Shown one piece after another: positions 6,511 to 45,724 of a DNA stretch of 64,000 bases (its first letter is position 1; each line of letters starts with the position of its first letter). Source of the stretch: a bacterium (GTDB lineage: Bacteria; Hydrothermota; UBA3073; JACQXS01; JAQTXJ01); assembly GCA_028716385.1 (NCBI GenBank), contig JAQUPX010000001.1:282775-346774 (forward strand), written 5' to 3'. A model generated the notes under the pieces. That model was not told the DNA's origin and made no database searches. It saw nothing but the letters and a program-made list of their open reading frames with translations. The position numbers and the translations under genes were made by a program.

Positions 6511-6512
6511 AA

Positions 6513-27731: not shown

Positions 27732-27780
27732 CAGTATTTTACTTTTTTAATACATTATAAAATTAATAATCTACTCCTTG

Positions 27781-27803: not shown

Positions 27804-27819
27804 CAAGGATGCAATACAA

Positions 27820-27963
27820 TTACATAAGGACCATTGTACAATTATCCGTCATGTCAGTTTCATCTTCATTCAATCTACTAGGCCCTATACGTCTTGCTAA
27901 TTTCCCTGGTGTTGTCCCAGCCTCAATAGTTACGGTACTTTCAATTTTTGTTAGTTCAAACAT
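27820..27963 (-). CDS. unannotated 47-aa ORF, candidate precursor peptide
   Basis: Minus-strand ATG at 27963 with AAGGAGGTGA 8 nt upstream; translation MFELTKIESTVTIEAGTTPGKLARRIGPSRLNEDETDMTDNCTMVLM; stop TAA at 27820-27822; sits directly 5' of the rSAM-ABC operon on the same strand; below the 60-aa track cutoff. Confidence 0.35.
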   Translation of the reverse strand: MFELTKIESTVTIEAGTTPGKLARRIGPSRLNEDETDMTDNCTMVLM

Positions 27964-27990
27964 TTTTTCATCACCTCCTTTTTCACATAG

Positions 27991-28073
27991 CAATCACTTT
28001 AAATGTATGTCAAGAGAATTGCAAGAAAAAATCCTAGTAAAATATTAGGATTTCTAGTAAAATATTAGTATCC
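27991..28073 (-). promoter_or_regulatory. promoter/operator module with tandem direct repeats (CTAGTAAAATATTAG x2), -35-like TTGACA and a TTTAAAGT box
   Basis: Minus-strand reading: TTTTACTAGAAATCCTAATATTTTACTAGGATTTTTTCTTGCAATTCTCTTGACATACATTTAAAGTGATTGC, just upstream of the RBS of the small ORF; about 80 percent identical to 61715-61794. Confidence 0.45.
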
Positions 28074-28272
28074 CTTTCGCCCCCATTTTTCCCTGAAATA
28101 CCCATTGTCCCCCATCTTTCAGAGAAATTTCTGCTAACCGGTTCTAAACTTTAAAAAATACTTATTTCCCTTTACAAATCGAATTTTTCCACCCCATAAA
28201 ATCTATTTCGCCGGCGGCGGAAATACTAAAACGTTTGAAAAATTTATACGGGAACAGAAAAAACCGCAGAAC

Positions 28273-29046
28273 CTAAAACGCTTTTTGTCCCAGAATAGTC
28301 ATATTGAAAGAATTAGTATTGAATTTGTTTTCTTCAAGATTAGGATTGACCGAATCGCCATAGACTGCCTTAATGCTGATGTTGACTTCGCGAAACATTT
28401 TTTCTATGTCCCCATAAGAATAAACTTTAATTTTTTGTTTGGGGTATTCGTATGAATTATTCCCTTCAATAACTGTCGTGTTGACGGTAAAAATACTTTG
28501 CAAAACATCAAAAGCGTTCTCTACTATAAAAGTTTTTTCCCCGATTTTATACCTGTCTTTTTTTAGCAGCTTCGGAATATATTGCAAGTTAAATAAATCC
28601 AGAAGTAAATGTCCCTGCGGTTTTAACAAACCCGATATGAGATTTAGCGCCTTCATATTTTCTTTGTCCGACAAAAGACCGAAACTGATGTCCATCATAT
28701 AGACAGCATCAAACCTACACTTGAAACAAGGCGAAAGCATATCCCCGCAAACAAAAGAAGCGCTTAACTTCTTTCTCCCTGCCTCTGCCATTCCGGATTT
28801 TAAAAGCACAAAAGAGTAATCCATCCCTACGACGTTTTCGTATTTCCTTTTCGCAAATTCTATAATATGTCTTCCGTCCCCACATCCTAAATCCAACACC
28901 GCCGTTTCTTTACGTATATTCAAAACTTTTTCAAGGAAGTCCGTCTGGGCAACTGTCACGGCAAGGGATTCTCTCCACCCGTTTTCATACCTGAGCGCGT
29001 AAAGCTCCTTCCACCATTCCTTTGAATATCCTTTTTTCATTGTCAT
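28273..29046 (-). CDS. class I SAM-dependent methyltransferase
   Basis: Motif I VLDLGCGDGRH and downstream acidic/hydrophobic motifs; track ORF extends to 29199 but the likely start is MTMKKGYSK at 29046. Confidence 0.7.
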   Translation of the reverse strand: MTMKKGYSKEWWKELYALRYENGWRESLAVTVAQTDFLEKVLNIRKETAVLDLGCGDGRHIIEFAKRKYENVVGMDYSFVLLKSGMAEAGRKKLSASFVCGDMLSPCFKCRFDAVYMMDISFGLLSDKENMKALNLISGLLKPQGHLLLDLFNLQYIPKLLKKDRYKIGEKTFIVENAFDVLQSIFTVNTTVIEGNNSYEYPKQKIKVYSYGDIEKMFREVNISIKAVYGDSVNPNLEENKFNTNSFNMTILGQKAF

Positions 29047-29278
29047 CTTAAAACCCCAACCTAACTCACTTTCATCGGTTGAAGCGGTCCCCCAAAGCAC
29101 TACATTAACATACAAATAACACAATTTAAAGTTGTGTCTACAATTACTTTTTTCGGCACGCAAGATGTCCCATTTAAAATCCTGACTGCCGTCAGGCAAG
29201 TTATCGGACTATGCCCATTCTGCTTTCCTTTTTTAAAAATATTGTAGGGACAGCCTCCCCAAAAAAAATGCTTATTCC

Positions 29279-29315: not shown

Positions 29316-30824
29316 ATGTTAAACATTTTTCTTATCTGTCTTCTCAACCTCCCCGGCGAATGGCTCAAATTCCATCACGACCTCCAAAACACAGGTTTCC
29401 AATCTGAACTCAAAGGATGCTTAACTCCTGACTCCGTCAGAATCAAATGGGAAACTCCTAATTTGGGATTCGCCAAATTCACAATTGTAGATATAAATAA
29501 TGACGGCATTCCTGAAATAATTGCCGGTAATTACTATGACTATTCAATATATAATTTCAAAGGGGAAGACGGTTCGGTAATATGGAGTTACGAAACAGGA
29601 AGCAAAGTGTCCTCTACTCCTGCGATTGCAGATTTGGATAACGATACTAAACTTGAGATACTTGTTGGCTCAAGGGATTATAATTTATACGCTCTCAAGG
29701 GTGAAAATGGGACACTGCTCTGGAATTATACAACAGGAGGTTCTGTGTATTCTTCGCCAACGATTGCGGATTTAAATAACGACAGTAAACTTGAGGTAGT
29801 TGTTGGCTCTGGCGATTTTACACTATATACGCTCAACGGAGAAGATGGTTCTCTACTCTGGAGTTATACAACAGGAGGGAGTATAATATCTTCACCTGCA
29901 ATTGCGGATTTGGATAACAACGCTAAACTTGAGGTAGTTGTTGGGTCCGATGATTCTACGCTGTATGGCCTAAATGGAGAAAATGGCTCACTACTCTGGA
30001 GCTATAAAACAGGAAATTGCATAGAGTCTTCGCCGGCAATTGGGGATTTGGATAACGACACTAAACCTGAAGTAGTTTTTGGCTCTGTGGATTCGACGTT
30101 GTATGCTCTCAATGGCGAAGATGGCTTACTACTCTGGAGTTATACAACAGGAGGTTCCGTATACTCTTCGCCGGCAATTGGGGATTTGAATAACGACAGT
30201 AAACTTGAGGTAGTTGTTGGATCATTTGACCATAAACTGTATGCTCTCAATGGAGAAGATGGCTCATTGCTCTGGAGTTATGGAACAGAGAATTGGATAT
30301 ACTCCTCGCCAGCAATTGGGGATTTGGATGGTGATGGGAAACTTGAGATAGTATTTGCCTCTTGTGATACAATAACAACAGTATACGGACTCAACGACGA
30401 TGGCACTCTTCTATGGACATTTAACATTTATTCTGCTGGAGACAGCGACCCTTCAATCGGAGATGTAGACGGTGACGGACAACTAGAAGTAGTAATCGGG
30501 GGAACGGGTTATTTAAAAGTTCTGGATGGAGGATGCATAGCCGGCGTTCAGGAAAAAATTGATTCTAAAGAAACCCCTAAACTCCATACACAAATCTTCG
30601 GGCGCAAATTACTTTTCAGATACTCCATACCAAAGAAATCCGACGTCTGTTTACGAATATATAACACTGCAGGCGAATTAGTTAAGACTCTTTTAAACAC
30701 AAATAAAGCCCCCGGTGAATATACATTAGAATGGACGCCGACAGGTTTTGCCTCAGGCATCTACCTTGCAAGACTATCCGCTTGCGGAGCAAACTGCACG
30801 TCAAAAATAGTAGTCGTGAAGTAG
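29316..30824 (+). CDS. propeller-repeat (PQQ-like / FG-GAP-like) protein with T9SS C-terminal tail; inverted paralog of 17109-18596
   Basis: 502 aa; same repeat architecture and near-identical first ~60 and last ~100 residues as 17109-18596. Confidence 0.65.
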   Translation: MLNIFLICLLNLPGEWLKFHHDLQNTGFQSELKGCLTPDSVRIKWETPNLGFAKFTIVDINNDGIPEIIAGNYYDYSIYNFKGEDGSVIWSYETGSKVSSTPAIADLDNDTKLEILVGSRDYNLYALKGENGTLLWNYTTGGSVYSSPTIADLNNDSKLEVVVGSGDFTLYTLNGEDGSLLWSYTTGGSIISSPAIADLDNNAKLEVVVGSDDSTLYGLNGENGSLLWSYKTGNCIESSPAIGDLDNDTKPEVVFGSVDSTLYALNGEDGLLLWSYTTGGSVYSSPAIGDLNNDSKLEVVVGSFDHKLYALNGEDGSLLWSYGTENWIYSSPAIGDLDGDGKLEIVFASCDTITTVYGLNDDGTLLWTFNIYSAGDSDPSIGDVDGDGQLEVVIGGTGYLKVLDGGCIAGVQEKIDSKETPKLHTQIFGRKLLFRYSIPKKSDVCLRIYNTAGELVKTLLNTNKAPGEYTLEWTPTGFASGIYLARLSACGANCTSKIVVVK

Positions 30825-31119
30825 TATCCAATCGCGCATCTAGCGGGATTAGCCTAACTAAACGTGCTCTCCCATCTACCCTGTGTTTTGTTTTCAATCC
30901 TGTTCATCTGCGTCCAAATATTTTTTGTTTTTCCTTACTTAACTAACTATACTCACTTACCTAACTCAACTATTTTAGTATCACCATCTTCTTCGTCTCC
31001 TTAACATTCCCAGCCGTTACCCTCACAAAATATAGCAGACTCTTGCGTTCAACAAAGTGGAACGCTTAGAGGTCGCTATCCGGCTCTGCTACAACCTCTT
31101 TCTCTCTCGCATAGGCTTT

Positions 31120-31548
31120 TTATGGTAAAAGCGCAGGGTCTGTGTACCACCAAATTTTATTTATTTTAATTTCAATTTTTAATGTGTCACTGGAAGAGGT
31201 ATTTACGACTACAAGCATAACGGTATCGGGATCATCTGCTTTCCAACCCCAGTCAACATTATAAAGAGTGTCTTTCGTAATCTCTTTGTAACTGCTGTCT
31301 TTGTATTCACTGAGAGATATGCGCCCGACAGAAGGCCCGGATTCGTGAGTCGTTTTAACGTATAAAGTATCTCCTTCACCCCAACAATGTCTCCATATAA
31401 TAGAATCATTCTGAGAAATCGTCCATACTGTATCAACCCAACAATCATTGTACCTATAAGGTTTTTTCTTAGGGGCATTGCAGGCAAGGGTAAAAACTAT
31501 AAAACACATACTACAAATGGAAAGAATAAAAAAATAATTCTTTTTCAT
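31120..31548 (-). CDS. putative lipoprotein
   Basis: 142 aa; MKKNYFFILSICSMCFIVFTLACNAPKK signal/lipobox-like; AAGGAGGGGGA upstream. Confidence 0.5.
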   Translation of the reverse strand: MKKNYFFILSICSMCFIVFTLACNAPKKKPYRYNDCWVDTVWTISQNDSIIWRHCWGEGDTLYVKTTHESGPSVGRISLSEYKDSSYKEITKDTLYNVDWGWKADDPDTVMLVVVNTSSSDTLKIEIKINKIWWYTDPALLP

Positions 31549-31697
31549 ATCCCCCTCCTTTTTTACCCGGCTCAGCTACAAACTCTTGGATACAATCCTT
31601 AGAGTTTGTTGTCCAGCTCAGCTGTGGCCGTGGCTTTTTTTATTTTGCTTTCTGTTTTGTCATTGTCATCCCGCACTTGATGCGGGATCCATTGTTT

Positions 31698-33131
31698 TCA
31701 CTTTATTAGTACCATTTTCTTTGTCTCTTTAAAATTATTAGTTGTCACCCTCACAAAATATACCCCACTCTTTTTTATATTCGGCGTAAACACATAATCC
31801 CCTTTGCTTAATGCTCCATTGTAAATAACCTCTTTCGTTCTCCCGCACAAATCGTAAATTTTCAATTCCGCATTTATACTCTTTGGCACGCTCAAATAAA
31901 TCTTATCTTTTATTATTTCCATTTTTGATATTTGATTTTTGATTTTTGATTTCTCCTCTATCCCTACCTTAACATATTTTAATGCAAGCGAATAGTTCCA
32001 TCCTGCCGAAATTGCAGTAACGCCTGTCAGGAGGCTTGTCTGGACAGGCTGATTACGCTGGGTGCCGGTAGAATCTCCAAGCTGTCCATAACCGTTCTGC
32101 CCCCAAGCCCATACGGTACTGTCGGATTTTATTAATGCGAGTGAATGTTCCCCTCCTGCTGAGATTGCAACGGCATTGGTCAGATTAAGTGTCTGCAAGG
32201 GCACGGAATGAGGATTATAATCACTACTTCCGATACCAAGCTCCCCATAGCCGTTATATCCCCAAGCCCATACGGTTCCGTCAGGCTTTAATGCGAGTGA
32301 ATGCGCGCCCCCTGCTGAGATTGCAATAACACCGGTCAGGAGTTTTACCTTGACAGGCTGATTATTCTGGGTGGTGGTAGAATCTCCAAGCTGTCCGTAG
32401 TAGTTATATCCCCAAGCCCAGACTGTACTGTCAGACTTTAACGCAAGTGAATGGTGACCTCCCGCTGAAATTGCAACGACATTCGTCAAAAGATTTGTCT
32501 GGACAGGTACGAAATGAGTATTGTAATCGCTACTTCCGATACCAAGCTGTCCGGAGCCGTTATATCCCCATGCCCAGACGGTTCCGTCAGATTTTAACGC
32601 AAGTGAATGCGAACCTCCCGCAGAAATTGCAATAACATTCGTAAGAAGTTTTGTTTGCACAGGATAACGGCGATAGGCAGTAACAGTAGAATCTCCAAGC
32701 ACTCCGGAACCATTACTTCCCCAAGCCCAGACAATGCTGTCAGATTTTAAAGCAAGTGAATGCGAACCTCCCGCAGAAATTGCAACAACATTAGTCAAGA
32801 ACTTTGTCCGGACAGGATTATATCTATAATAAAAAGTAGTAGAATCTCCAAGCTGTCCGTAGGCATTATATCCCCACGCCCAGACAGTGCTGTCATAGTT
32901 TATGGCAAGCGAAAAGTCATATCCTCCTCCGCCTTTTCCTGCACAGATTGCAAGAACATTAGTCAAGATTTTTGTCCGGACGGGTTGATTCCGTTGCCAA
33001 GTATTAGTAGAATCTCCAAGCTGTCCCCAGTCATTACTTCCCCATGCCCATACATTTTCATCGGCTTTTGCGACACCTGCGCTTCCTGCTATCAACAGGC
33101 TTACGACCCACATAAAACTTTGTTTCTTCAT
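31698..33131 (-). CDS. RCC1-repeat propeller protein with T9SS C-terminal tail
   Basis: 477 aa; seven-plus repeats of VWAWGxNxYGQLGDST...GGxHSLALKSDxTV; C-terminal sorting tail. Confidence 0.7.
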   Translation of the reverse strand: MKKQSFMWVVSLLIAGSAGVAKADENVWAWGSNDWGQLGDSTNTWQRNQPVRTKILTNVLAICAGKGGGGYDFSLAINYDSTVWAWGYNAYGQLGDSTTFYYRYNPVRTKFLTNVVAISAGGSHSLALKSDSIVWAWGSNGSGVLGDSTVTAYRRYPVQTKLLTNVIAISAGGSHSLALKSDGTVWAWGYNGSGQLGIGSSDYNTHFVPVQTNLLTNVVAISAGGHHSLALKSDSTVWAWGYNYYGQLGDSTTTQNNQPVKVKLLTGVIAISAGGAHSLALKPDGTVWAWGYNGYGELGIGSSDYNPHSVPLQTLNLTNAVAISAGGEHSLALIKSDSTVWAWGQNGYGQLGDSTGTQRNQPVQTSLLTGVTAISAGWNYSLALKYVKVGIEEKSKIKNQISKMEIIKDKIYLSVPKSINAELKIYDLCGRTKEVIYNGALSKGDYVFTPNIKKSGVYFVRVTTNNFKETKKMVLIK

Positions 33132-33345
33132 CTTTCCCCCTTAGAAACTCTTATTTTTTTATGTTTAGAGTTTCTTATCAGTGTTTCTGCATTAGTTGGA
33201 CTTTCCCGCTCCGCCTGAGGCGGACGGATTAGACCAACTTATCAGTGTTCCTGGCTTTATCAAATTCCCGGCAAATCCGGGTTTTTTTTATTTTGCTTTC
33301 TGTTCTGTCATTGTCATCCCGCACTTGATGCGGGATCCATTGTTT

Positions 33346-34407
33346 TCATTTTATTAGTACCAGTTTCTTTGTCTCTTTAAAATTATTAGTTGTCACCCTC
33401 ACAAAATACACCCCATTCTTTTTCACATTCGGAGTAAACACATAATCCCCTTTGCTTAATGCGCCATTGTAAATAACCTCTTTCGTTCTCCCACACAAAT
33501 CGTAAATTTTCAATTCCGCATTTATACTTTTAGGCACATCCAAATAAATCTTATTTTTTCTTATCTGTAAATCCGCATTCCCCAATCCCTGCCTACCGGT
33601 CAGGCAGGCAAAATCCAAAATCGATGGGTCTTCTATCCCTGCACCGGCATCATAAACTGCTATTGTTGCCCTGCCGCTATCATCCCATGCTATTGCTTCG
33701 CTGGGCGACGAAGCGGAAATCTCTCCCCCGGCTCTAAAGTATACATTTGAAATACCTGAGAAAACGTAATGAGACGCAAGATTTGTGAAGTATAAATCAA
33801 GAGGATAGAGAGTGGAAAGCCCTACGTTCATATTAAATGCATTAGCCACGGGAGCTATGTTCTGATTAGGACAATATGCATTTTCAGACATTATTAAAAT
33901 TCCACCTGTTTTTAAGAGCCAGTTGAATGCATTTAAAGCGAAAGCTTTGTTATCTGCAGAATCAATATACTCACTGTCACAGAAATTACAGTCCCCGACT
34001 AACAATACGCGCCCGTTTTTTCTTTTAATATATTGAGCAAGAGAATCTACTTCAGAGGGTTGATAAAAACTATCCCAGGCACATGCGGAATTAATTACTA
34101 TAACATCGTAACCCGATAGATTCATAAAACCTATACCTGTGTCAACGACATCTATGCAATAATCATTAGAATCTAAAAGAGCAGTTAATCTGCTATACCC
34201 TCCGGAAGGAAGGTAGTAGTTACTGTATATTCCGTGCGTAGTATCCCACAGAACTGAGTATGTTGCCGTTTTCCCCTTTTTTTGTAATGATGGTTTTTGG
34301 GATTCATTCGTAGTATTAATTATTCTTCCTGTAGTAGCATCGTACTGAGCATAAGTCAGGTTACAAAATACAATTATTCCTGCAAAGACAAGCCGAATTT
34401 TTCTCAT
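33346..34407 (-). CDS. secreted hypothetical protein with T9SS C-terminal tail, duplicate A
   Basis: 353 aa; signal-like N-terminus; first ~270 codons about 98 percent identical at nucleotide level to 37724-38797. Confidence 0.55.
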   Translation of the reverse strand: MRKIRLVFAGIIVFCNLTYAQYDATTGRIINTTNESQKPSLQKKGKTATYSVLWDTTHGIYSNYYLPSGGYSRLTALLDSNDYCIDVVDTGIGFMNLSGYDVIVINSACAWDSFYQPSEVDSLAQYIKRKNGRVLLVGDCNFCDSEYIDSADNKAFALNAFNWLLKTGGILIMSENAYCPNQNIAPVANAFNMNVGLSTLYPLDLYFTNLASHYVFSGISNVYFRAGGEISASSPSEAIAWDDSGRATIAVYDAGAGIEDPSILDFACLTGRQGLGNADLQIRKNKIYLDVPKSINAELKIYDLCGRTKEVIYNGALSKGDYVFTPNVKKNGVYFVRVTTNNFKETKKLVLIK

Positions 34408-34414
34408 AACTTTA

Positions 34415-36040
34415 TTATCTCATTAGAATCAATTTCTTTGTTTCTCTGTAATTATCCGTTTTTAACTTCACAAAATAAATCCCTGTTTTTAGGTCTTTTG
34501 AGTTATTATCGGTACCATCCCAGGTGACAGTGGTCATTGGGGAATTAGGTAATTGAGTTATTGGGAAACTCTTTACTAATTTGCCGGCAATGTCGTAAAG
34601 TTTCAAGGAACAGTCCCGACTGTTCCCTACGGAGAAGGAAATGACTGTTGATTTTGAGAATGGATTTTTGTTTACCCTAAGCGTAGTCGAAGGGGGAGTG
34701 ATGTTTACTTTTTCCTGTATGCCCATTTTTTCGTTAGTTTTATAATGATACCCCATATCTACATATTTTTTATCAAAGACCGAGTCAGTTCTTGTTGTGT
34801 AAAGATGGAACCCCAAATCTTCTGCAAGCGTGTCTCCTGCCTCTACGCAAGGGCTTTCGACTGCTTGTCCTGCCGCTATCTGACTAAGGAAAAACGAATC
34901 TGCGCCCGATATTGCAAACATTGGGGGGCGGGAAATATTATAAAAACTATCACAAGGAATTCCGTTGCGATTTACACCCCAAGTCGTATCTCCGACTCCC
35001 GGACAAAAAACAAAATTTCCGGCCGAATTACCCCAAACGTTATTAAAAGCAATAAGAGAAGGAGTGATTTGACCACAATTATAACAATCTATCCCATATC
35101 CCGAACAACTAACAATAATATTATTAAGAATTACTGCGGGAGAAGGTGACTGACTGAGCCAGACCTGAGTAGGAGGAGCAGAACCGGAAGACCACGTCGT
35201 ATTATTTGAAATAGTATTATTTATAACGAAACTATTAGAGCGACATATATCAATTGCATAAGCGCGTTGAGATATGTTTCTACATATAAGATTGTTTTTT
35301 ATGGTATCAGACGAGGAGACACATCTTATTCCTCCGCCATCGAACCAAACTGAATTGTTTTTTATAATATTCCCAAATATTATAGAGCCTGTATTGGAGT
35401 CAAGATAAATGCCTCCGCCATATCCTCCTCCAATGGGTGTCACTGAGAAAAGCCCGCCATTTCCAACTATTTGATTATACATTATTTTAGCTCCATTAGA
35501 ATGACCACAATAAATAGCTGACCCTAAATGCCCTTTATTGCCTGATAAAACATTAAAGGTGATTTTAGTTGCCCCGCCCAAACAGCAAATTCCACCGCCG
35601 TTAGAGGAAATGGACCCATTTACAAAATTATTAAGTATCTTGTTATTGGTAATGGTAAGATAAGAATTATAACAATATATACCGCCTCCAACACTATCAG
35701 TAACATATCCCCATTGGATTGTAAAACCGGAAATTATTGTGTTGGAATCAAGAGTATTGCAGTTAAAAATCCTATTAGTACTATCCGCATCAACTATCGT
35801 AGAATCCGCACCTTTCTCGCTCATCAAAATTACCCCATTTTCCATATTTATCGGGAAAGTTTCTCCGGATGCCGTGTCGTAAATTCCCGGGGCTACGAGA
35901 ACAGTATCGCCATATTTAGCCGAATCTTCAACTGCATGTTTTATTGTTGAAATATATGATGGAACATACCATATTTTTGCCTGCAAAGAGTTAACCACAA
36001 ATAATAAGGTTGTAACAACAAAACAATTTACTCTTTTCAT
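34415..36040 (-). CDS. right-handed parallel beta-helix repeat protein with T9SS C-terminal tail
   Basis: 541 aa; repeated GGGIYxxNSxxTIxNNxIxNN units typical of pectate-lyase-fold repeats; C-terminal sorting tail. Confidence 0.65.
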   Translation of the reverse strand: MKRVNCFVVTTLLFVVNSLQAKIWYVPSYISTIKHAVEDSAKYGDTVLVAPGIYDTASGETFPINMENGVILMSEKGADSTIVDADSTNRIFNCNTLDSNTIISGFTIQWGYVTDSVGGGIYCYNSYLTITNNKILNNFVNGSISSNGGGICCLGGATKITFNVLSGNKGHLGSAIYCGHSNGAKIMYNQIVGNGGLFSVTPIGGGYGGGIYLDSNTGSIIFGNIIKNNSVWFDGGGIRCVSSSDTIKNNLICRNISQRAYAIDICRSNSFVINNTISNNTTWSSGSAPPTQVWLSQSPSPAVILNNIIVSCSGYGIDCYNCGQITPSLIAFNNVWGNSAGNFVFCPGVGDTTWGVNRNGIPCDSFYNISRPPMFAISGADSFFLSQIAAGQAVESPCVEAGDTLAEDLGFHLYTTRTDSVFDKKYVDMGYHYKTNEKMGIQEKVNITPPSTTLRVNKNPFSKSTVISFSVGNSRDCSLKLYDIAGKLVKSFPITQLPNSPMTTVTWDGTDNNSKDLKTGIYFVKLKTDNYRETKKLILMR

Positions 36041-36048
36041 TTTATTTC

Positions 36049-37638
36049 CTATTTCATTAAAATCAGTTTCTTCGTTTCTTTTATATTTCCTGCTGTTAGC
36101 CTCACAAAATACACTCCGCTCTTTTTTATGTTCGGCGTAAATGTATAATTGCCTTTGGTTAATGTACCTGAATAAACAGTGCTTTGAAGTCTACCACATA
36201 AATCGTAAATAGTTATTAGGGCATTAGGACAATAGTTATTAGGAACAGAAAGATAAATCTTTCCTTTTATAATTTTCAATTCCAAATTCCGAAATCCAAA
36301 ATCCAAATTCTTTTTATCCGCCTTCTCTTCAACTCCTATCTGTGTTCCATAATGGTATCCCAAATCAACCCATCCGGTATCAGGCTTTCCGTCAGTGGTA
36401 TTGCCACCCAGAAAGAGAAACTCATTATTAACAATATAATCCCCGCACCCTGAAACATTTTGCTGGTAATAATTTCCTAACGTCCCGCTCGTAAATCCCG
36501 GGTCAATGTTTATGTTATAAAAGCTATCGCAGGCATTTCCGTTCCTGTTAGTGCCCCAGGAGAAATTGCCAACTCCCTGCGGAGCATTATGAAAATTATC
36601 GGGATTATTGAGATAAAAACCGTTATATCCGATAAAAACTTTAGCCAGACTGTCGCAATATATTCCTCCTCCTGTTATTGCGCTGTCATAGGCAATTATG
36701 TTATTTTTTATAATTATAGAGTCCTGTCCCGAATCATTTCCCCAACAAAAAATACCGCCACCTCGTCCATCCCCATTATTAAACGGGTAATAATTATTAA
36801 CTATTGTATTGTTGATTATCTCTACCGGAGCAGAGCACTCAATTCCCATTCCAAAACCTTCTACATACCAGCCATTGCATGCATAATTGCTATCTATAAG
36901 ATTATTAAAAATAACGGCTTTTATGCAATTTACACACTCAATTCCGCCTCCATAAGGACTAGCTTCTATTGCATTATTTTTAGCTATAACATTATTCTTG
37001 ATAGTGATAATTGTAGCTTCTGCATATATTCCGCCCCCCCCGTATGCCTCATAGTATTTTGAGATATCCCCTTGAAGGTTATTTCCATCTTCTTTTACTA
37101 ACATACCGGCAGACTTTTTATTGTTTTTAAGATTGTCGGCCTCAGAGCTATTATACTTTATTATGTTATTCTCAATCAAAGCGGACCCTCCGTAAACAAA
37201 TATACCCCCACCCGCTGCAGGGAGATTATAAGCAGGATCTAACGTGTTATCCCGAATAATATTATTCCTTATAATTATATTTGAATTGTCGGAATATATT
37301 CCACCCCCATAAGAATGAAAACTACTGCCATCACTTATGGTAAAGCCATCAATTAGAACTGTATCGGTTAAACCAATGCATTTGATAACTGAGTACCCTC
37401 CGCTAATGATTGTGCTTTCCGGGCCTTCTTCGCTTTTGAGATGGATACCCCCCTTCATATTTATACTGTTTATACCGCCGGAGTAAGTCCCTTTTGAGAC
37501 AAGAACCACATCTCCCGACACGGCAGAATCAATTCCCGTTTGAATTGTAGAATAGTCAGCCGGGATACGAATTGTTTTTGCTTCAATATTACCCGTAATA
37601 AAGAATATCAAAGACACAAAAAATAAATATGTTCTCAT
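36049..37638 (-). CDS. right-handed parallel beta-helix repeat protein with T9SS C-terminal tail
   Basis: 529 aa; GGGIYSDNSNIIIRNNIIRDN and GGGIFCWGNDSGQDSIIIKNNII units; C-terminal sorting tail. Confidence 0.65.
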   Translation of the reverse strand: MRTYLFFVSLIFFITGNIEAKTIRIPADYSTIQTGIDSAVSGDVVLVSKGTYSGGINSINMKGGIHLKSEEGPESTIISGGYSVIKCIGLTDTVLIDGFTISDGSSFHSYGGGIYSDNSNIIIRNNIIRDNTLDPAYNLPAAGGGIFVYGGSALIENNIIKYNSSEADNLKNNKKSAGMLVKEDGNNLQGDISKYYEAYGGGGIYAEATIITIKNNVIAKNNAIEASPYGGGIECVNCIKAVIFNNLIDSNYACNGWYVEGFGMGIECSAPVEIINNTIVNNYYPFNNGDGRGGGIFCWGNDSGQDSIIIKNNIIAYDSAITGGGIYCDSLAKVFIGYNGFYLNNPDNFHNAPQGVGNFSWGTNRNGNACDSFYNINIDPGFTSGTLGNYYQQNVSGCGDYIVNNEFLFLGGNTTDGKPDTGWVDLGYHYGTQIGVEEKADKKNLDFGFRNLELKIIKGKIYLSVPNNYCPNALITIYDLCGRLQSTVYSGTLTKGNYTFTPNIKKSGVYFVRLTAGNIKETKKLILMK

Positions 37639-37723
37639 TTTTCCTCCCCTCCTCCGATATTTTTTCTGTTATTTGTTTTATTTGTCTTATTCGTCCTATA
37701 TGACTTATATGTCTTATCTTTTC

Positions 37724-38797
37724 CTATTTCATTAATATTAGTTTCTTTGTCTCTTTTATATTCCCCGCACTTACCCTCACAAAATACACCCCACTCTTTT
37801 TTATATTCGGAGTAAACACATAATCCCCTTTGCTTAATATGCCATTGTAAATAACCTCTTTCGTTCTCCCGCATAAGTCGTATATTTTCAATTCCGCATT
37901 TATACTCTTTGGCGCGCTCAAATAAATCTTATCTTTTAGCAATTGGAGCGAAGCGACATCCCGCCCTGGCGGGACCAAAATCGATGGGTCTTCTATACCT
38001 GCACCGGCATCATAAACTGCTATTGTTGCCCTGCCGCTATCATCCCATGCTATTGCTTCGCTGGGCGACGAAGCGGAAATCTCTCCCCCGGCTCTAAAGT
38101 ATACATTTGAAATACCTGAGAAAACGTAATGAGACGCAAGATTTGTGAAGTATAAATCAAGAGGATAGAGAGTGGAAAGCCCTACGTTCATATTAAATGC
38201 ATTAGCCACGGGAGCTATGTTCTGATTAGGACAATATGCATTTTCAGACATTATTAAAATTCCACCTGTTTTTAAGAGCCAGTTGAATGCATTTAAAGCG
38301 AAAGCTTTGTTATCTGCAGAATCAATATACTCACTGTCACAGAAATTACAGTCCCCGACTAACAATACGCGCCCGTTTTTTCTTTTAATATATTGAGCAA
38401 GAGAATCTACTTCAGAGGGTTGATAAAAACTATCCCAGGCACATGCTGAATTAATTACTATAACATCGTAACCCGATAGATTCATAAAACCTATACCTGT
38501 GTCAACGACATCTATGCAATAATCATTAGAATCTAAAAGAGCAGTTAATCTGCTATACCTTCCGGAAGGAAGGTAGTAGTTACTGTATATTCCGTGCGTA
38601 GTATCCCACAGAACTGAGTATGTTGCCGTTTTTTCTTTTTTTTGTAATGATAGTTTTTGGGGTTCATTCGTAGTGTTAATTATTCTTCCTGTTGTAACGT
38701 CATATTGAGCGTAAGCTATGTTAAAAAATACGATTATTCCTGCAAAGACAAGCCGAATTTTTCTTCTGCCTGAGGCGGATTTCGCTTTGCTCAACAT
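37724..38797 (-). CDS. secreted hypothetical protein with T9SS C-terminal tail, duplicate B
   Basis: 357 aa; see duplicate A; the linker before the tail differs (VPPGRDVASLQLL versus DFACLTGRQGLGNADLQI). Confidence 0.55.
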   Translation of the reverse strand: MLSKAKSASGRRKIRLVFAGIIVFFNIAYAQYDVTTGRIINTTNEPQKLSLQKKEKTATYSVLWDTTHGIYSNYYLPSGRYSRLTALLDSNDYCIDVVDTGIGFMNLSGYDVIVINSACAWDSFYQPSEVDSLAQYIKRKNGRVLLVGDCNFCDSEYIDSADNKAFALNAFNWLLKTGGILIMSENAYCPNQNIAPVANAFNMNVGLSTLYPLDLYFTNLASHYVFSGISNVYFRAGGEISASSPSEAIAWDDSGRATIAVYDAGAGIEDPSILVPPGRDVASLQLLKDKIYLSAPKSINAELKIYDLCGRTKEVIYNGILSKGDYVFTPNIKKSGVYFVRVSAGNIKETKKLILMK

Positions 38798-38804
38798 AAT
38801 TTTC

Positions 38805-40268
38805 CTATCTCATTAGAATCAATTTCTTTGTTTCTCTGTAATTATCCGTTTTTAACTTCACAAAATAAATCCCTGTTGTTAAACCTTTGGCGTCAAAATT
38901 AACACTATAACTTCCCGCTTGTTTTTCTTCATTGACAAGTGTTTTAACACAACTGCCCGTTATGTCATAAAGGGCTAACGAAACTTTACTTTTCCCATTG
39001 TTGAGCGAAGCGAAATCCGCCGTAGGCGCGAGTATTTGATATTTAATAATCCCTTTATTTACTATAGGATTTGGAAAACAATCGGTCAATCCATATGTTT
39101 TTGGAGTCCCGGTTTCTTCTTGAATGCTGCCAAAGCCAGGTCCTATCGCATAAAAAAGACTATCGCTTCCTTGTACATATATTGTTCCATCTGAACCTAT
39201 CGTAGGAGAAGAATATATTGGCGCTCCTGTTAAATAAGACCATTTAAGCGAACCATCAGAATTTATTGCGTAAAGGTTACTATCACTAGACCCAATATAT
39301 ATAGTTCCATTAAAATCTATTGCCGGAGAACTTCCTATTCTCTCACCTGTTAGAAAAGACCATTTAACCGAGCCATCAGGATTCATTGCATAAAGTTTCC
39401 TATCGTACGATCCAACATATATAGTCTCATCATAACCTATTGCAGGGCAAGAAGTAGTTATCATACCTCCTGTTTGATATGACCATTTTAGCGTCCCACT
39501 ATCAGGGTTTAAAGCATAAAGCTTGTGATTATATGCTCCTATATATACGGTTCTATCAGAACCTATCGCCGGTGCAGGATTGGGCTGACTTCCCGTTTGA
39601 TATGACCATTTTTCAACCCCGTCGTAATTTATCGCGTAAACCTTACCGGCATCACACCCCAAATATATAACCCCGTTAAGAGGGTCTATTGCCGGAGATG
39701 ACGCTATTCGGAAGTCTGTTTGATATGACCATTTAAGCGAACCATCAGGGTTTATCGCATAAAGTTTAAAATTAGATGACCCAAAATATATAATCCCGGC
39801 AGAATCTATTGCCGGGGAGCTGTTTTGATACCATCCGCTTCCTACTGTTACAAAAGACCATTTAAGCGAGCCGTCAGGATTTATTGCATAAAGTTTACTA
39901 TCCCAGGATAATACATATATAGTACTATCATAGCCTATTGCCGGCGAAGATATTACATAGTCCCCCGTTTTATATGACCATTTGATAGAGCCCATAGAAT
40001 CTATTGCATAAAGATTGCTATCGCTTGACCCGACATATAAAGTCCCATCAAAACCTATTGTTGGGGAAGAAAAACTCAAATAATTTCCTGTTACACAGCT
40101 CCATTTAAGTTGAGGGGTTGCAGGTCCGATATATGGGCTGCGTCCTGTATGTTGTAAATCATGGTGAAACATTGGCCAGGGAGTATTTGCTAACTGAGCA
40201 TCCAGGTTTCTAAACCCAATCAACCCAACAAATAAAATGAAAAAAACTTTTATACTTTTTATTGTCAT
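38805..40268 (-). CDS. PQQ-like beta-propeller repeat protein with T9SS C-terminal tail
   Basis: 487 aa; eight-plus repeats of YAINPDGSLKWSYxTGxxxxSSPAI; C-terminal sorting tail. Confidence 0.65.
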   Translation of the reverse strand: MTIKSIKVFFILFVGLIGFRNLDAQLANTPWPMFHHDLQHTGRSPYIGPATPQLKWSCVTGNYLSFSSPTIGFDGTLYVGSSDSNLYAIDSMGSIKWSYKTGDYVISSPAIGYDSTIYVLSWDSKLYAINPDGSLKWSFVTVGSGWYQNSSPAIDSAGIIYFGSSNFKLYAINPDGSLKWSYQTDFRIASSPAIDPLNGVIYLGCDAGKVYAINYDGVEKWSYQTGSQPNPAPAIGSDRTVYIGAYNHKLYALNPDSGTLKWSYQTGGMITTSCPAIGYDETIYVGSYDRKLYAMNPDGSVKWSFLTGERIGSSPAIDFNGTIYIGSSDSNLYAINSDGSLKWSYLTGAPIYSSPTIGSDGTIYVQGSDSLFYAIGPGFGSIQEETGTPKTYGLTDCFPNPIVNKGIIKYQILAPTADFASLNNGKSKVSLALYDITGSCVKTLVNEEKQAGSYSVNFDAKGLTTGIYFVKLKTDNYRETKKLILMR

Positions 40269-40275
40269 CTTTTCC

Positions 40276-41622
40276 TTATTTCATCACGATTAACTTTTTT
40301 GTTAGTTTGTAATTGTCTGCACTTAGTTTCACAAAATAAATTCCTGTTTTTAATTCTTTTGCATTTAGAGTAACACTATAACTTCCCGCTTCTTTTTCCC
40401 CGTCAGCTAATGTCTTAACACAACTTCCTGAAATGTCGTAGAGCCTTAATGAGATATTGCTTTTATCGGGTACGCAGTAACTAACAGTAGTTGATTTAAT
40501 AAACGGGTTTTTCAGTATTTCTAATTTTGCATTTCGGAATGTGAATTGCGGATTTTGGGATTCTTCCATCCCCATAGTTGTATAAACCCATTTTAAGTCT
40601 TTGTTTGTGAAATCATAATAAGCAACATCCATTGCGTACCCATCTTCACCACAACTCGTGTATCCTCCAACATCTCCAAAATCACACGCCCCTCCGCCCG
40701 ATGAAGTGTTTCCCCATTTAAGAACTCCGCCAGTTTTATCATAGTAAGTGATCATCCCATCGTTACAGCAAGCAAACATCCCTACATCTCCAACACTATC
40801 CAGAATAGAAGTTATCCAACTGCTCCCATTAAAAACAGCTTTTTTCAGGTCACCGTTTGTTACATCGTAATAAGCAATTACATAATTATTAGTTACTTTA
40901 CTGAGAGAACAGTACTGTCCTACATTTCCTGCTGTGTCCGCTTTTCCAATTATCCACTGGGTTCCGGTCCGGTATGCATATTTCAGGTCGCCGTTTGTTG
41001 CATCATAATAAGCTATTCCATATCTATCCTCTTTGTAGAGAGAACTGTATTGTCCAACGTCTCCCGCGGTATCCACTTTCTCAATTATCCATTGTGTTCC
41101 ATTCCAACTTGCATATTTTAAGTCGCCGTTTGTCGCATCATAATAGCTTATGTGTGGATAATTGAGAGTATCTAATTTCAACGAGGTGTATAATCCAACA
41201 TTTCCGGTAGTGTCCACTTTTTCAATATCCCATTGTGTCCCATTCCAATGGACATACTTTAAGTCTCCATTTGTAGAGTCATAATAACTTATGTGCGGAG
41301 AATACAGACTGTCTTTAATAACGGTTTGTATTCCAATAGAAGTCCACATTCCCACATCACCTATTGTATCTACATTTTGGATTGAAAACATTTCAAATCC
41401 TTCTGCACACTTTAGATTACCATTTGTAGCATCATAATAGGATATAAAAACAGGGAAAAGATCTGCTCTGGATATACTTTGAGGCGCTACCATTGAAATA
41501 TATTTTCCAACGTCCCCGGTTGTATCTACCCTGAAAATAGCTCCTCCTGTTGATTTTTCACTGAGAATTGCCAACATTACTACTGTCCAGAATATACTTA
41601 GCATAAATCTACTTCTTCTCAT
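40276..41622 (-). CDS. tandem ~45-aa repeat (ISYYDATNGDLKYA...) protein with T9SS C-terminal tail
   Basis: 448 aa; five-plus copies of DTxGDVGxYxSLxxxxxxxPHISYYDATNGDLKYAxWNGTQW; C-terminal sorting tail. Confidence 0.55.
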   Translation of the reverse strand: MRRSRFMLSIFWTVVMLAILSEKSTGGAIFRVDTTGDVGKYISMVAPQSISRADLFPVFISYYDATNGNLKCAEGFEMFSIQNVDTIGDVGMWTSIGIQTVIKDSLYSPHISYYDSTNGDLKYVHWNGTQWDIEKVDTTGNVGLYTSLKLDTLNYPHISYYDATNGDLKYASWNGTQWIIEKVDTAGDVGQYSSLYKEDRYGIAYYDATNGDLKYAYRTGTQWIIGKADTAGNVGQYCSLSKVTNNYVIAYYDVTNGDLKKAVFNGSSWITSILDSVGDVGMFACCNDGMITYYDKTGGVLKWGNTSSGGGACDFGDVGGYTSCGEDGYAMDVAYYDFTNKDLKWVYTTMGMEESQNPQFTFRNAKLEILKNPFIKSTTVSYCVPDKSNISLRLYDISGSCVKTLADGEKEAGSYSVTLNAKELKTGIYFVKLSADNYKLTKKLIVMK

Positions 41623-41871: not shown

Positions 41872-43299
41872 TTATTTTAACACTTTCCAATATCCGCCTT
41901 TATCCGGTCCAATTCGCTTGATAATTTTCTCTTTAACCAGTTTTCGTAATCGAGACTGTATTGTTTCTTCTGTCTCGTTCAGTTGTATAGATAATTCTTT
42001 CCTTGATAACTGCGGGTTTTCTTTTATCGTATTTATTATTATCCGGTATTTATCCGGTATTTTTCTGGGACTTTTCTGGGACTTTTCTGGGACTTTTGCA
42101 GTGATCTTTACAGTGCCTTTCCCGGCGTCCTTGTTATATAATTTTTCTGAAAACTTTTTTTTCGACTTATAAAAAATTACTACAAAACCTGTTTTTATAC
42201 ACTGAAACTCAACTTTTATTTTATATTTCTCGCATTCTTCGTAGATTCTTTTTAATCCGCTTCCCCATTTTTCAATGTCACTTGATTTATACAAAGTCTC
42301 CGCAATTAATGGATTCCTTAAGATAGAATGCTCTTTGCCCTTGATAAAGTCTTCAGGGGTTGCTTCTTCCGGGAACTGTCCGGGGTTATATATTTCTATC
42401 CTGTCCTTAAAAATAGCAATTTCATTGCCTTTAGGATTAGCATAATCCCTGTGACATAATGAATTGACAATAGCCTCTGTAATGGCTCTGACAGAGATTT
42501 CAGGGATTTCTTCTCTCCTGCTTCCTTCAAGATTAGCGCGCCAGTTCATATGCTCTTTTATGTAAGTTTCTGATTGTGCTTTCAAATTGAAAATATTTCC
42601 CTTAAATTTCTTGATATCAAGAAATGTGAGTTTATCCGTACCGGCAAATACAGCCGCCTGTACTTCCATTAAATTGTCATCACAAAATAAAACCTCTGCG
42701 GATTTGAGTAGTTTGTTTCCTTTGCTAAGATTTAATTTATGTAATACAGTTTTTATGTTTGAAAACTTGAAGTTAATTCTTTTAGCTTCGTTTGCCCTTG
42801 CTATATAATTTTTTACTGTATCTACATTTATATCTTTAAGAGATTTCTCTGATACTCCGTTTTCCCAAAAGATTTTGTTTTTCTTAAGTATTAAATTCTC
42901 CAATTCTCGAGCACTCAATTGCCTGTTTTCGTCGCCAACTCTCATATATGCTCTACCATAAGCAAAGTAAGGAATGTCCTGCCCGGAAAATTCAACCTCA
43001 ATATACATCTTTTTATTTGCCTTATTTGCAGAAACTTTAGGGAAAATTCTAGGCTCAATATGTTCTGAAATAGCTCTGGAAATTTCTCTTAAAGTATTTT
43101 TACCTATCGCCTGGCCTACAAAAGTGCTATCATCTTTTATGCCAAAATATATTTTACCTTTACTATGTTTATTAAGAATGGCAGATATAGAAATAATGGC
43201 TTCTTTTAATTCTGAAGTTGATGCCTTAAGCTCAACCTTTTCTGATTCTATATATTTCATTCTATTAGTACTACTATATAGTTTCTGTAATGTCGTCAA
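41872..43299 (-). CDS. putative DNA-binding regulator (AlbA_2/Schlafen-like domain + HATPase_c_4-like + C-terminal winged helix)
   Basis: 475 aa; N-terminal YIESEKVELKAS...GKIYFGIKDD block, central ITEAIVNSLCHRDYANPKGNEIAIFKDRIEIYNPG block, C-terminal IINTIKENPQLSRKELSIQLNETEETIQSRLRKLVKEKIIKRIG helix-turn-helix; contains an 11-nt x3 tandem repeat at 42061-42093. Confidence 0.65.
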   Translation of the reverse strand: MTTLQKLYSSTNRMKYIESEKVELKASTSELKEAIISISAILNKHSKGKIYFGIKDDSTFVGQAIGKNTLREISRAISEHIEPRIFPKVSANKANKKMYIEVEFSGQDIPYFAYGRAYMRVGDENRQLSARELENLILKKNKIFWENGVSEKSLKDINVDTVKNYIARANEAKRINFKFSNIKTVLHKLNLSKGNKLLKSAEVLFCDDNLMEVQAAVFAGTDKLTFLDIKKFKGNIFNLKAQSETYIKEHMNWRANLEGSRREEIPEISVRAITEAIVNSLCHRDYANPKGNEIAIFKDRIEIYNPGQFPEEATPEDFIKGKEHSILRNPLIAETLYKSSDIEKWGSGLKRIYEECEKYKIKVEFQCIKTGFVVIFYKSKKKFSEKLYNKDAGKGTVKITAKVPEKSQKSPRKIPDKYRIIINTIKENPQLSRKELSIQLNETEETIQSRLRKLVKEKIIKRIGPDKGGYWKVLK

Positions 43300-43369: not shown

Positions 43370-44197
43370 TCATTTCATTAATATTAGTTTCTTTGTCTCT
43401 TTTATATTCCCCGCACTTAACTTCACAAAATATACCCCGCTCTTTTTTATGTTCGGCGTAAATGTATAATCCCCTTTACTTAATGTGCCACTGTAAATAA
43501 CCTCTTTCGTTCTCCCGCATAAATCGTAAATTTTCAATTCCGCATTTATACTCTTTGGCGCGCTCAAATAAATCTTTCCTTTTATAATTTTCAAGTCAAC
43601 AGCTTGAAGCGAGGGCTTCAAGCTACCCTGTTCTTCTATCCCTACGACAGGAGTGCCTGTTATGGAAACATCGTCAATCCAAAAAGCGACAGAGTCAGTA
43701 TAACTTGAAGTACCGGGAGATTGTATATCTGCTCCGAATATAATTCCGGTTATAGTATCCTTATCAGTATAAATTCCTTGCCATTGTGTCCATACCAAGT
43801 TTTCCCCCATACCATACAGATAATCCCCCCTAGTCCATACTGTATCATTCTTTTTATTTATAAGGAGAATGATAGATATTTTGTTAACAGACATCGCAGG
43901 CGCATCGCACGAATATTGATACTGAATTTTGCATGTGCAAGATATTACGGGTTTTATCGTTTGGGACATAGTTATGCTACTGAACTGGCATGAAGGTTTA
44001 TATCCATAAGCATATACCTCGCAACTTGCCGGAGAGGAGTAATATTTTGTATAGCAAGGAGTTGCCCTCCCGCCACCGTGTGCTATTGTGGGCGACCAGC
44101 TCGTTACTCCCGAATTAAATCCACCGTTAGTTATCATCTCACTCGCAAACATAGATAACGGCACAATTAACATCAAACCTATCAATACCTTTTTCAT
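43370..44197 (-). CDS. secreted hypothetical protein with T9SS C-terminal tail
   Basis: 275 aa; signal-like N-terminus; C-terminal sorting tail. Confidence 0.5.
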   Translation of the reverse strand: MKKVLIGLMLIVPLSMFASEMITNGGFNSGVTSWSPTIAHGGGRATPCYTKYYSSPASCEVYAYGYKPSCQFSSITMSQTIKPVISCTCKIQYQYSCDAPAMSVNKISIILLINKKNDTVWTRGDYLYGMGENLVWTQWQGIYTDKDTITGIIFGADIQSPGTSSYTDSVAFWIDDVSITGTPVVGIEEQGSLKPSLQAVDLKIIKGKIYLSAPKSINAELKIYDLCGRTKEVIYSGTLSKGDYTFTPNIKKSGVYFVKLSAGNIKETKKLILMK

Positions 44198-44208
44198 AGT
44201 TTTTTCTC

Positions 44209-45618
44209 CTACTTAATCAAGATTAATTTCTTTGTTTCTGTAAAATTATTAGTTTTTAATTGCACAAAATACACCCCATTCTTTTTTATCTTCGGCGTAA
44301 ACGTATAATCCCCTTTACTCAATATGCCATTATAGACAGTGCTTTGAAGTCTTCCACATAAATCATAAATCGTTATTAGTGTATTAGTATAATAGTTATT
44401 AGGAACAGAAAGACAAATCTTATCTTTTATAGTTTTTATATTTACTGACCACTCACCACTCACCACTGGCAACTGTTCTTCTTCTACGCCGACTTCTTTC
44501 CCCAATTTAATCAGATAGACTCCACAACCTGCCCCACTTCCTGCAATAATAAATCCGCTGTCAGAAGTTTGTTGAATTGATCTTCCCGCATCATAGCCGG
44601 TTCCGCCGATAGTTTTTGTCCAGAGAGTGTCGCCCGAACTATTTATCTTGATTAGATAGATATCTCCACCACCTGCCCCAAAAGAGGTTGTCATTCCTGA
44701 AATAATAAATCCGCTATCAGAAGTTTGTTGAAATGCCCAGCCCTCATCATACTCAGTTCCACCATAAGTTTTTGTCCAAATCGTATTACCTGAAGAATTT
44801 GTACGTATAAAATAAATATCTCCCTTACCTGCTCCTAAAAGTTCTGAATAACCTAAAACAATAAAGCCACCCATTCCGCCCGAAACTGATTGAACGGAAG
44901 TGCCGCCATCATATCCGCTTACACCGAAAGTTTTAGTCCAGATAACATCTCCCGAACTAGTTGTCCTTATTAGATAAACATCTCCCTCGCCCGGTCCATA
45001 ATATGCTTTTGTCATTCCTGAAATGATAAACCCTCCGTCTTGAGTCTGTTGAACGGAAAAACCTACATCATCGTAAATTCCGCCATAAGTTTTTGTCCAG
45101 AGAGTATTACCCGAAGAATCTGTCTTGATAAAATAAAAATTCTGATAATCCGGTGCGCCTGTCCCGAAAGAGTATGTCCCGCCTACGATAACAAATCCTC
45201 CGTCTTGAGTCTGTTGAACGCATTCTCCATAATCAGAGTCAGTCCCGCCGTAACTTCTTGACCATAAGGTATCCCCTAAAGAATCCGTTTTAATCAAACA
45301 AACATCTTTCCCGGAATACGTATTGCCTGCAATAATAAACCCGCAGTCAGAAGTCTGTTGGACCGAAAAGCCCCCATTGTTGCTAATTTTTCCGAAAGTT
45401 TTTGTCCACAGGGTATCCCCCGAAGAGTTTGTTCTGATGAGATAAATATTATTAGAATCTGTACGGCTTACAATAACAAATCCCCCGTCTTGAGTCTGTT
45501 TAACAAAATAGGCAGATGCACTTTTCCCGCCATAAGTCCTTGTCCATAAAGTATCCGGTGCAGATGCGAACAAGTTTGTTCCCGTTATGATAATTAATAT
45601 AATCAAATATCTTTTCAT
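44209..45618 (-). CDS. beta-propeller-type repeat (SBBP-like) protein with T9SS C-terminal tail
   Basis: 469 aa; eight repeats of GDTLWTKTYGGxxxDxGxSVQQTxDGGFIIxGxT...DxYLIKT; C-terminal sorting tail; same family as the fragment at 1-552. Confidence 0.6.
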   Translation of the reverse strand: MKRYLIILIIITGTNLFASAPDTLWTRTYGGKSASAYFVKQTQDGGFVIVSRTDSNNIYLIRTNSSGDTLWTKTFGKISNNGGFSVQQTSDCGFIIAGNTYSGKDVCLIKTDSLGDTLWSRSYGGTDSDYGECVQQTQDGGFVIVGGTYSFGTGAPDYQNFYFIKTDSSGNTLWTKTYGGIYDDVGFSVQQTQDGGFIISGMTKAYYGPGEGDVYLIRTTSSGDVIWTKTFGVSGYDGGTSVQSVSGGMGGFIVLGYSELLGAGKGDIYFIRTNSSGNTIWTKTYGGTEYDEGWAFQQTSDSGFIISGMTTSFGAGGGDIYLIKINSSGDTLWTKTIGGTGYDAGRSIQQTSDSGFIIAGSGAGCGVYLIKLGKEVGVEEEQLPVVSGEWSVNIKTIKDKICLSVPNNYYTNTLITIYDLCGRLQSTVYNGILSKGDYTFTPKIKKNGVYFVQLKTNNFTETKKLILIK

Positions 45619-45724
45619 ATTGCCCCCCTATTTCAGTGGGTAGTTGGGAGCACGTGCTCCCAACGCTACCCTGTGTTTTCATTCTGTCATTGTCATCCCG
45701 CACTTGATGCGGGATCCATTGTTT

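Follow-up and report, generated by a model that had tools for sequence, protein, structure and literature searches.

A near-perfect repeat in two cargo genes of a WOR-3-like bacterium: likely recent, patchy gene conversion among genes sharing a type IX sorting domain

We analysed a window of 64,000 nucleotides (nt) from a metagenome-assembled genome (MAG) of an uncultured bacterium that is probably a relative of candidate division WOR-3 (assembly GCA_028716385.1, contig JAQUPX010000001.1, 953,578 nt long, positions 282,775 to 346,774), in which two genes, here called A and B, form a long direct repeat. Both genes lie on the - strand, as do all genes within 31698-41622, and the two copies are 4360 nt apart (Table 1). 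Judged from their C-terminal domains (CTDs), A and B appear to be paralogues that encode cargo of a type IX secretion system (T9SS), set within a dense array of such genes. Two beta-helix genes lie between them and are old paralogues of one another, with 32% amino acid (aa) identity. The first-pass annotation of this DNA had described the repeat as the 5' part of one gene together with the tail of its neighbour, present in two copies that flank two beta-helix genes, and this anatomy was borne out by alignment and by domain matches. A tandem duplication of the 4.4-kb unit was considered and rejected, because the intervening DNA occurs only once and its two beta-helix genes are so dissimilar.

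Table 1. Features of the A/B repeat and of the surrounding cargo genes (positions in the window; ORF, open reading frame)
Feature	Coordinates	Strand	Basis or comparison
Gene A, 353 aa, MDD5528677.1: putative Sec signal peptide, weakly DUF4350/GIFT-like passenger, linker, T9SS type-A CTD	33346..34407	-	ORF, TIGR04183, exact match to P0001
Gene B, 357 aa, MDD5528680.1: paralogue of A, 92% aa identity, same domain order	37724..38797	-	ORF, TIGR04183
Beta-helix T9SS cargo gene upstream of A, between the copies	34415..36040	-	PF13229, DUF1565, TIGR04183
Second beta-helix T9SS cargo gene between the copies	36049..37638	-	Weak NosD-like match
PQQ-like beta-propeller T9SS cargo gene upstream of B	38805..40268	-	Pfam, TIGR04183
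RCC1-repeat T9SS cargo gene, the nearest match for the CTD and 3' spacer of A	31698..33131	-	Pfam, alignment
Near-identical core, A copy, putative recent conversion tract, 215 passenger codons	33616..34260	-	3 mismatches/645 nt vs B
Near-identical core, B copy	37976..38620	-	Alignment to A
Diverged 5' region of A, signal peptide and N-terminal 48 codons	34261..34404	-	88% vs B 38621-38764, dS 0.36
30-nt in-frame insertion of B with degenerate copy of palindrome TCCGCCTCAGGCGGA	38765..38794	-	Alignment
72-nt exact patch, last 23 codons of beta-helix gene 34415-36040	34416..34487	-	= 38806-38877
72-nt exact patch, end of PQQ-like beta-propeller gene 38805-40268	38806..38877	-	= 34416-34487
Linker of A, unrelated to that of B, with 21-nt palindrome 33588-33608	33553..33615	-	Sequence comparison
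Linker of B, VPPGRDVASLQ type, similar to that of gene 40-552	37931..37975	-	Sequence comparison
CTD of A and 66 nt of 3' spacer, including hairpin	33280..33564	-	93.7% vs RCC1-repeat gene module 31632-31916
CTD of B	37726..37938	-	92.5% vs CTD of gene 43370-44197 (43372-43584)
Orphan 24-codon CTD tail (KSLLYFVRVTAGNVKETKKMVILK*), without start codon, stop 8 codons upstream	30970..31044	-	Sequence comparison

The CTD was recognised by TIGR04183 with 36.0 bits in A and 35.8 bits in B (cut-off 23), and the same model scored above its cut-off in every gene of 31698-41622 and 43370-48568; a window-wide hidden Markov model search found the CTD in at least 18 genes. The Pfam model PF18962 gave 22.3 and 22.6 bits for A and B, respectively, below the Pfam gathering score of 27. 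An AlphaFold2 model of A had a mean predicted local distance difference test (pLDDT) score of 57.8, with means for 10-residue blocks of 40-81 over the CTD (residues 281-353), and only the CTD gave meaningful fold matches, the passenger part being of medium-to-low confidence. The best Foldseek match of the modelled CTD was the CTD of RgpB (7pq4; E = 1.5e-4, probability 1.00), and the CTD chains of the RemZ (8gl8_D) and RemA (8gl6_D) translocon complexes matched with E = 3-5e-4 and probability 1.00. In RgpB, the last 22 residues of the CTD, which make up its last two strands, are the primary export signal (PMC4804311); the identical patch of 23 codons and the orphan fragment of 24 codons (Table 1) both correspond to this stretch. 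The 'tail' shared by the genes upstream of A and B is this T9SS sorting signal and no odd coincidence, a point that the first-pass annotation had missed, together with its presence in at least 18 genes of the window.

By inspection only, the N-terminus of A (MRKIR-LVFAGIIVFCNL-TYA/QY) has the basic n-region, hydrophobic core and AxA-like site of a signal peptide. The passenger domain of A had no significant Pfam match, DUF4350 reaching only E = 0.2 and 12.3 bits against a cut-off of 30.4. DUF4350 was matched by five of the eight members of the passenger family (best E-value 3.5e-9), with weaker matches to GIFT and ThuA, and a profile of the family found only IFT52 in the Protein Data Bank, marginally (E = 0.069). 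The A/B passenger may thus be distantly, and weakly, related to DUF4350/GIFT.

The A/B alignment covers 1.15 kb at 90% identity and runs on into the final 23 codons of both upstream genes. It contains codons 1-264 of A with their equivalents in B, a 7-nt spacer and the last 23 codons of genes 34415-36040 and 38805-40268. Homology of ~86% then carries on through the CTD to the stop codons, indicating that A and B are paralogous over their entire lengths. The longest perfect run is 449 nt (33638-34086), and since this is the sole long near-perfect repeat in the window, chance is excluded as its origin. A repeat of ~900 bp with ~98% identity had been claimed at this place. The repeat is indeed real and in direct orientation, but it is not uniform, since it combines a 645-nt core with 3 mismatches, a diverged spacer and a 30-nt indel. 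The coordinates given earlier (33600-34480 and 37980-38880) correspond to 97.3% identity without gaps and 91% with gaps; the correct register is 33616 = 37976, so that the earlier start positions were ~15-20 nt off.

The fine structure of the alignment is described here in the coding direction, with synonymous (dS) and nonsynonymous (dN) divergence for the individual segments. The first segment is an exact run of 72 nt (34487 to 34416, equal to 38877 to 38806), which encodes TGIYFVKLKTDNYRETKKLILMR and has a dS of 0; outside this patch, the CTDs of the two upstream genes are only ~60% identical. The stop codon (TAA vs TAG) and the 7-nt spacer that follow differ between the loci at 4 of 10 positions, and directly 3' of the ATG, B carries its 30-nt in-frame insertion. 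The N-terminal 48 codons after the insertion point are 88% identical, with a dS of 0.36 and a dN of 0.07. They are followed by the core of 645 nt (34260 to 33616, equal to 38620 to 37976), where the 3 mismatches amount to a dS of 0.014. At the linkers, which cannot be aligned, identity breaks sharply. The 68 codons of the CTD are again ~86% identical (dS of 0.40), and the 3' spacers of A and B are unrelated. The passenger domain that the core encodes is conserved and has homologues in other MAGs, and a mobile element or insertion sequence was therefore rejected as the identity of the core.

The contrast in divergence between the core and the 48 N-terminal codons gave a Fisher p of 8e-11, and a gap in dS of 25-fold between adjacent segments cannot be explained by a single duplication followed by uniform drift. 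The earlier proposal of one recent ~900-bp segmental duplication was thus not supported: instead of uniformly low divergence over the whole unit, very low values in the core and the tail stood against the much higher ones in the segment between them and in the CTD. The alignment showed a bounded, near-identical tract with more diverged paralogous flanks on both sides, as expected of gene conversion, namely the 88% region on one side and the unrelated linker with the 86% CTD on the other. The dS pattern requires either older paralogues that underwent recent, patchy conversion or a recent copy that was later partly overwritten by other paralogues. We consider the former likely, that is, the near-identity of A and B would be the product of recent, patchy, non-reciprocal gene conversion between T9SS cargo paralogues that had already diverged.

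The latter history would begin with a single recent duplication of a unit of ~870-900 bp (upstream CTD tail, spacer and the initial 264 codons), after which the signal-peptide region and the linker and CTD of one copy were replaced through recombination with further paralogues. It has the merit that both identical patches fall into one colinear unit with the same spacing. A further paralogue, C (MDD5530461.1; 73% aa identity), is encoded on another contig, of 312 kb, most likely of the same MAG to judge by the accession series. At the protein level, A and C are identical at 26 of 27 residues of the signal peptide and at 169 of 215 residues of the core; the former value would be compatible with a later import into A, and the linker, CTD and 3' spacer of A are closest to the modules of other genes. 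However, at least two further recombination events would be needed for the codons with a dS of 0.36 and for the differing stop codon and spacer, and the 30-nt insertion sits in B, not in A. Furthermore, B is nearer than A to C in residues 28-49 of the proteins, so no simple overwrite from one donor fits. We regard a duplication of this kind as quite unlikely.

An assembly or polishing artefact, in which a strain variant was mis-duplicated or multi-mapped reads homogenised the paralogues, also has to be weighed, given that the source is a MAG and that the 449-nt perfect run exceeds a typical short read. Both copies, however, are intact in-frame ORFs placed in different unique genes, and their linkers, CTDs and 5' ends differ. 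Three copy-specific differences persist in the core, which indicates that the assembler kept the copies apart, and a two-copy direct repeat has one linear path only. In addition, the NCBI annotation has both proteins at full length. An artefact is therefore very unlikely, and for annotators and assemblers this means that 33.6-34.3 kb and 38.0-38.6 kb should be treated as true paralogous copies kept alike by recombination.

The signs of DNA exchange extended beyond the A/B pair. The CTD of A together with 66 nt of non-coding 3' spacer was 93.7% identical to the module of the RCC1-repeat gene, the CTD of B was 92.5% identical to that of gene 43370, and the CTD of gene 45725 was a three-part hybrid. 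The first ~40 nt past the stop codon, including a hairpin, were almost exactly common to the RCC1 gene, A and gene 45725; the hairpin following the CTD of A had a z-score of -4.1. When its palindrome was left out, the linker of A also resembled that of gene 45725. Exact runs of 20-72 nt were shared within 22 pairs of CTD tails whose cargo genes are unrelated, the longest being the 72-nt patch described above. For eight CTD tails, the pairwise homoplasy index (PHI) was 0.328 against 0.436 ± 0.012, none of 5000 permutations being as low (p < 2e-4), and the minimum number of recombination events (Rmin) was 18. The breakpoints inside the CTDs were scattered. The CTD modules in many of the window's cargo genes are combinatorial mosaics, with statistical support. 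Convergence at the protein level was ruled out as the cause of the similarity: the identity includes synonymous sites and non-coding 3' spacers, which points to exchange of DNA and not to convergent selection on the proteins.

The orphan tail of 75 nt starts, like the 72-nt patch, at the G-x-Y-F point and sits downstream of a small ORF (31120-31548) that is itself without a CTD; it is the sole promoter-less fragment in the window and was probably left behind by recombination or a deletion. Over its full length, the CTD of the PQQ gene is similar to the one in the neighbouring gene 40276, and that of the beta-helix gene 34415-36040 is alien except for the 72-nt patch. This makes a transfer of the patch from the B locus to the A locus probable.

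Several palindromes were found near the places where homology breaks. A 37-nt stretch of the linker of A (33579-33615) is identical to intergenic DNA at 24544-24580, inside a cluster resembling those for ribosomally synthesised and post-translationally modified peptides (RiPPs), and contains the 21-nt palindrome GCCTGCCTGACCGGTAGGCAG (hairpin z = -2.7). By comparison with the linker of gene 45725, this palindrome looks like an in-frame insertion in A. Another palindrome, TCCGCCTCAGGCGGA, is intergenic at 7268-7282, 18915-18929 and 33210-33224, with a degenerate copy at 38765-38779 in the insertion of B; eight matches were counted on both strands, against 0.01 expected, and it may be a REP-like (repetitive extragenic palindromic) element. 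The hairpin in the insertion of B was not significant on its own, and just one of the palindromes folded significantly better than shuffled sequence. As a separate observation, a conserved intergenic element of ~50 nt, built around CAGCNGAGCTGGAYAAC...CAAGRG, occurs at 19006, 24271, 24618 and 31608, always on the - strand; three of its four copies lie upstream of - strand genes, and it is without an Rfam match. Rfam had no match anywhere in the window, and a scan for sigma-70 promoters gave 42 sites, not above the expectation from shuffled sequence (35.3 ± 6.7).

Junctions recur where the last CTD hairpin begins, at G-x-Y-F, as in the 72-nt patch and the orphan tail; palindromes lie at or beside homology breaks; and the CTDs are combinatorial mosaics. 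Together, these features might suggest a dedicated system of cassette-type variation, in which CTD tails and palindromes would be the sites where a specific enzyme shuffles passenger cassettes and so varies the cell surface. We hold this to be extremely unlikely. The window ORFs include no recombinase, invertase, transposase or reverse transcriptase; A and B are each a complete gene of the expressed type and not a silent cassette, and the scattered breakpoints are those that general homologous recombination would give; moreover, only one palindrome stands out from shuffled sequence by its folding. Known types of programmed variation, that is, invertase shufflons, diversity-generating retroelements and silent cassettes such as pilS or vls, were rejected on the same grounds, namely the lack of such enzymes among the window ORFs and the completeness of A and B.

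Gene conversion between older paralogues, which we favour, could have proceeded as follows. The homology used in recombination, presumably of the RecA type, would be the CTD common to at least 18 genes of the window. One junction would fall where the coding sequence for the last two CTD strands, the export-signal hairpin GIYF...KKLILMR, begins; this tail is the most conserved stretch, is common to all cargo genes and offers exact matches of 20-72 nt between genes that are unrelated in other respects. The other junction would lie at the non-homologous linkers, where heterology would halt the conversion tract and where A has its 21-nt palindrome. The 190 nt between the identical patches would either have escaped conversion or have been overwritten later, for example from C; overwriting is considered because the signal peptide of A resembles that of C. 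The same process would then account for the mosaic CTDs seen in many of the window's cargo genes.

Some points weigh against conversion in this form. To leave two separate identical patches, conversion would have to run in a discontinuous tract or happen twice, and in a MAG the perfect identity could be partly inflated by consensus polishing. The scans returned no orthologous locus by which the event could be polarised, and C was compared at the protein level, which leaves some probability for a duplication followed by overwriting of the flanks. In addition, no T9SS machinery genes (PorK/L/M/N, Sov/SprA, PorU/V) were found among the ORFs of the 64-kb window, and secretion by this route is accordingly deduced from the CTD alone.

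A bolder extension is that the CTD tails serve as general recombination joints and that the cargo array is a self-shuffling cassette system, which we consider doubtful. If this were true, the joints would let whole passenger genes and pieces of CTDs be copied or swapped between unrelated cargo loci, and the array would diversify the cell surface of a WOR-3-like lineage, with the palindromes marking or promoting the junctions.

A direct repeat of 645 nt with a perfect run of 449 nt is ample substrate for RecA-dependent recombination. From what is established about homologous recombination, deletion or amplification of the 4.36-kb unit between the A and B copies is plausible, and the predicted product of a deletion is an in-frame B/A hybrid gene; the sequence of the window contains no sign of a past deletion or amplification between the copies. 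The locus offers a clean example, from a single genome, of a secretion tag that doubles as recombination homology, which may help to explain how large repertoires of T9SS cargo are built and remodelled outside Bacteroidota. If active deletion, amplification or cassette exchange were true, the locus would be a model for the diversification of surface proteins in uncultured lineages.

Beyond C, the nearest relatives of A and B share 47-48% identity; the annotation of one assigns it to candidate division WOR-3. A scan of genome contigs returned only CTD-level matches (32-44% over the last ~60 residues) in MAGs of Ignavibacteria, Marinimicrobia and Bacteroidota, and a scan of metagenomes returned only relatives of at most 40% identity, which were single-copy and in unrelated contexts. 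The passenger domain is apparently rearranged in comparison with relatives tagged by PEP-CTERM (alignment of P0001-P0006 vs P0012 and P0016): the block GRVLLxGD...FALNxFNWL is central in the WOR-3-type proteins and lies at the C-terminus of P0012 and P0016, a placement that suggests a circular-permutation-like change. Across these relatives, the one passenger domain also carries two different sorting tags, the T9SS CTD and PEP-CTERM.

Other loci in the window were also noted. Two FG-GAP/PQQ-like beta-propeller T9SS paralogues (17109-18596, - strand; 29316-30824, + strand) lie 12 kb apart with 89% identity between their CTD DNAs, and as inverted repeats they could invert the RiPP-like cluster between them. 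This cluster (22315-29199, - strand) encodes a YcaO cyclodehydratase (22315-24177), an ABC exporter (24652-26370), a radical SAM/SPASM enzyme (26367-27731) and a methyltransferase (28273-29199); no convincing ORF for a precursor peptide was found in its 475-nt gap (24178-24651). A second cluster (48771-55042, - strand) partly echoes this gene content, with an ABC exporter (48771-50516), a 479-aa protein without an assigned family, an AhpC/redoxin-like protein (52719-53192), a DUF5128 six-bladed beta-propeller (53177-54100) and a methyltransferase (54308-55042). The T9SS cargo array is interrupted by a gene with Schlafen/AlbA_2, HATPase_c_4 and winged-helix helix-turn-helix domains (41872-43299, - strand). 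Seven consecutive ORFs at 3812-9073 are without any Pfam match, and 13545-15725 encodes a 726-aa protein with a Peptidase_S74 domain, which acts as an intramolecular chaperone in endosialidases and tail fibres; from their sequences, these two regions may be a phage-derived or novel surface-structure cluster.

Comparison with known systems places the sorting domain of A, B and their neighbours with the T9SS type-A CTD (TIGR04183/PF18962, as in RgpB), with which it shares an Ig-like C-terminal beta-sandwich of ~70-80 residues. It differs in that the host is outside Bacteroidota, PF18962 stays below threshold and the machinery genes are not in the window; we found no literature on T9SS in WOR-3. 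The closest described case of recombination is that of the T9SS cargo genes rgpA, kgp and hagA of Porphyromonas gingivalis, in which adhesin modules undergo domain rearrangement and gene conversion (PMC5266723). The likeness lies in cargo genes with a conserved sorting domain, repeated modules and mosaics made by recombination. In P. gingivalis, however, the shuffled units are adhesin (CAD/DUF2436) domains and were seen by comparison of strains, whereas here, within a single genome of a WOR-3-like lineage and not of Bacteroidota, it is a DUF4350/GIFT-like passenger that is homogenised, and the mosaics are assembled from pieces of the CTD itself with the 3' spacer.

In Rhs, contact-dependent inhibition (CDI) and type VI secretion system effector loci, a conserved coding segment provides the homology for swapping a variable part, and promoter-less orphan fragments remain. 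The orphan CTD tail at 30970-31044 is similar to such fragments. The polarity is reversed here, however, with the conserved module C-terminal and the variable passenger upstream, and the locus is without toxin-immunity pairs or evidence of a functional displacement mechanism. In the tufA/tufB pair of Salmonella and in rRNA operons, RecA-dependent conversion recurrently homogenises the copies along their whole length. A and B resemble these pairs in having a sharply bounded, near-identical tract within diverged paralogues, in which synonymous divergence has collapsed, and differ in that the tract is partial and patchy and reaches a neighbouring, non-paralogous gene through the shared CTD tail. 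As concerted evolution of bacterial paralogues, the A/B case is an ordinary route of gene-family evolution.

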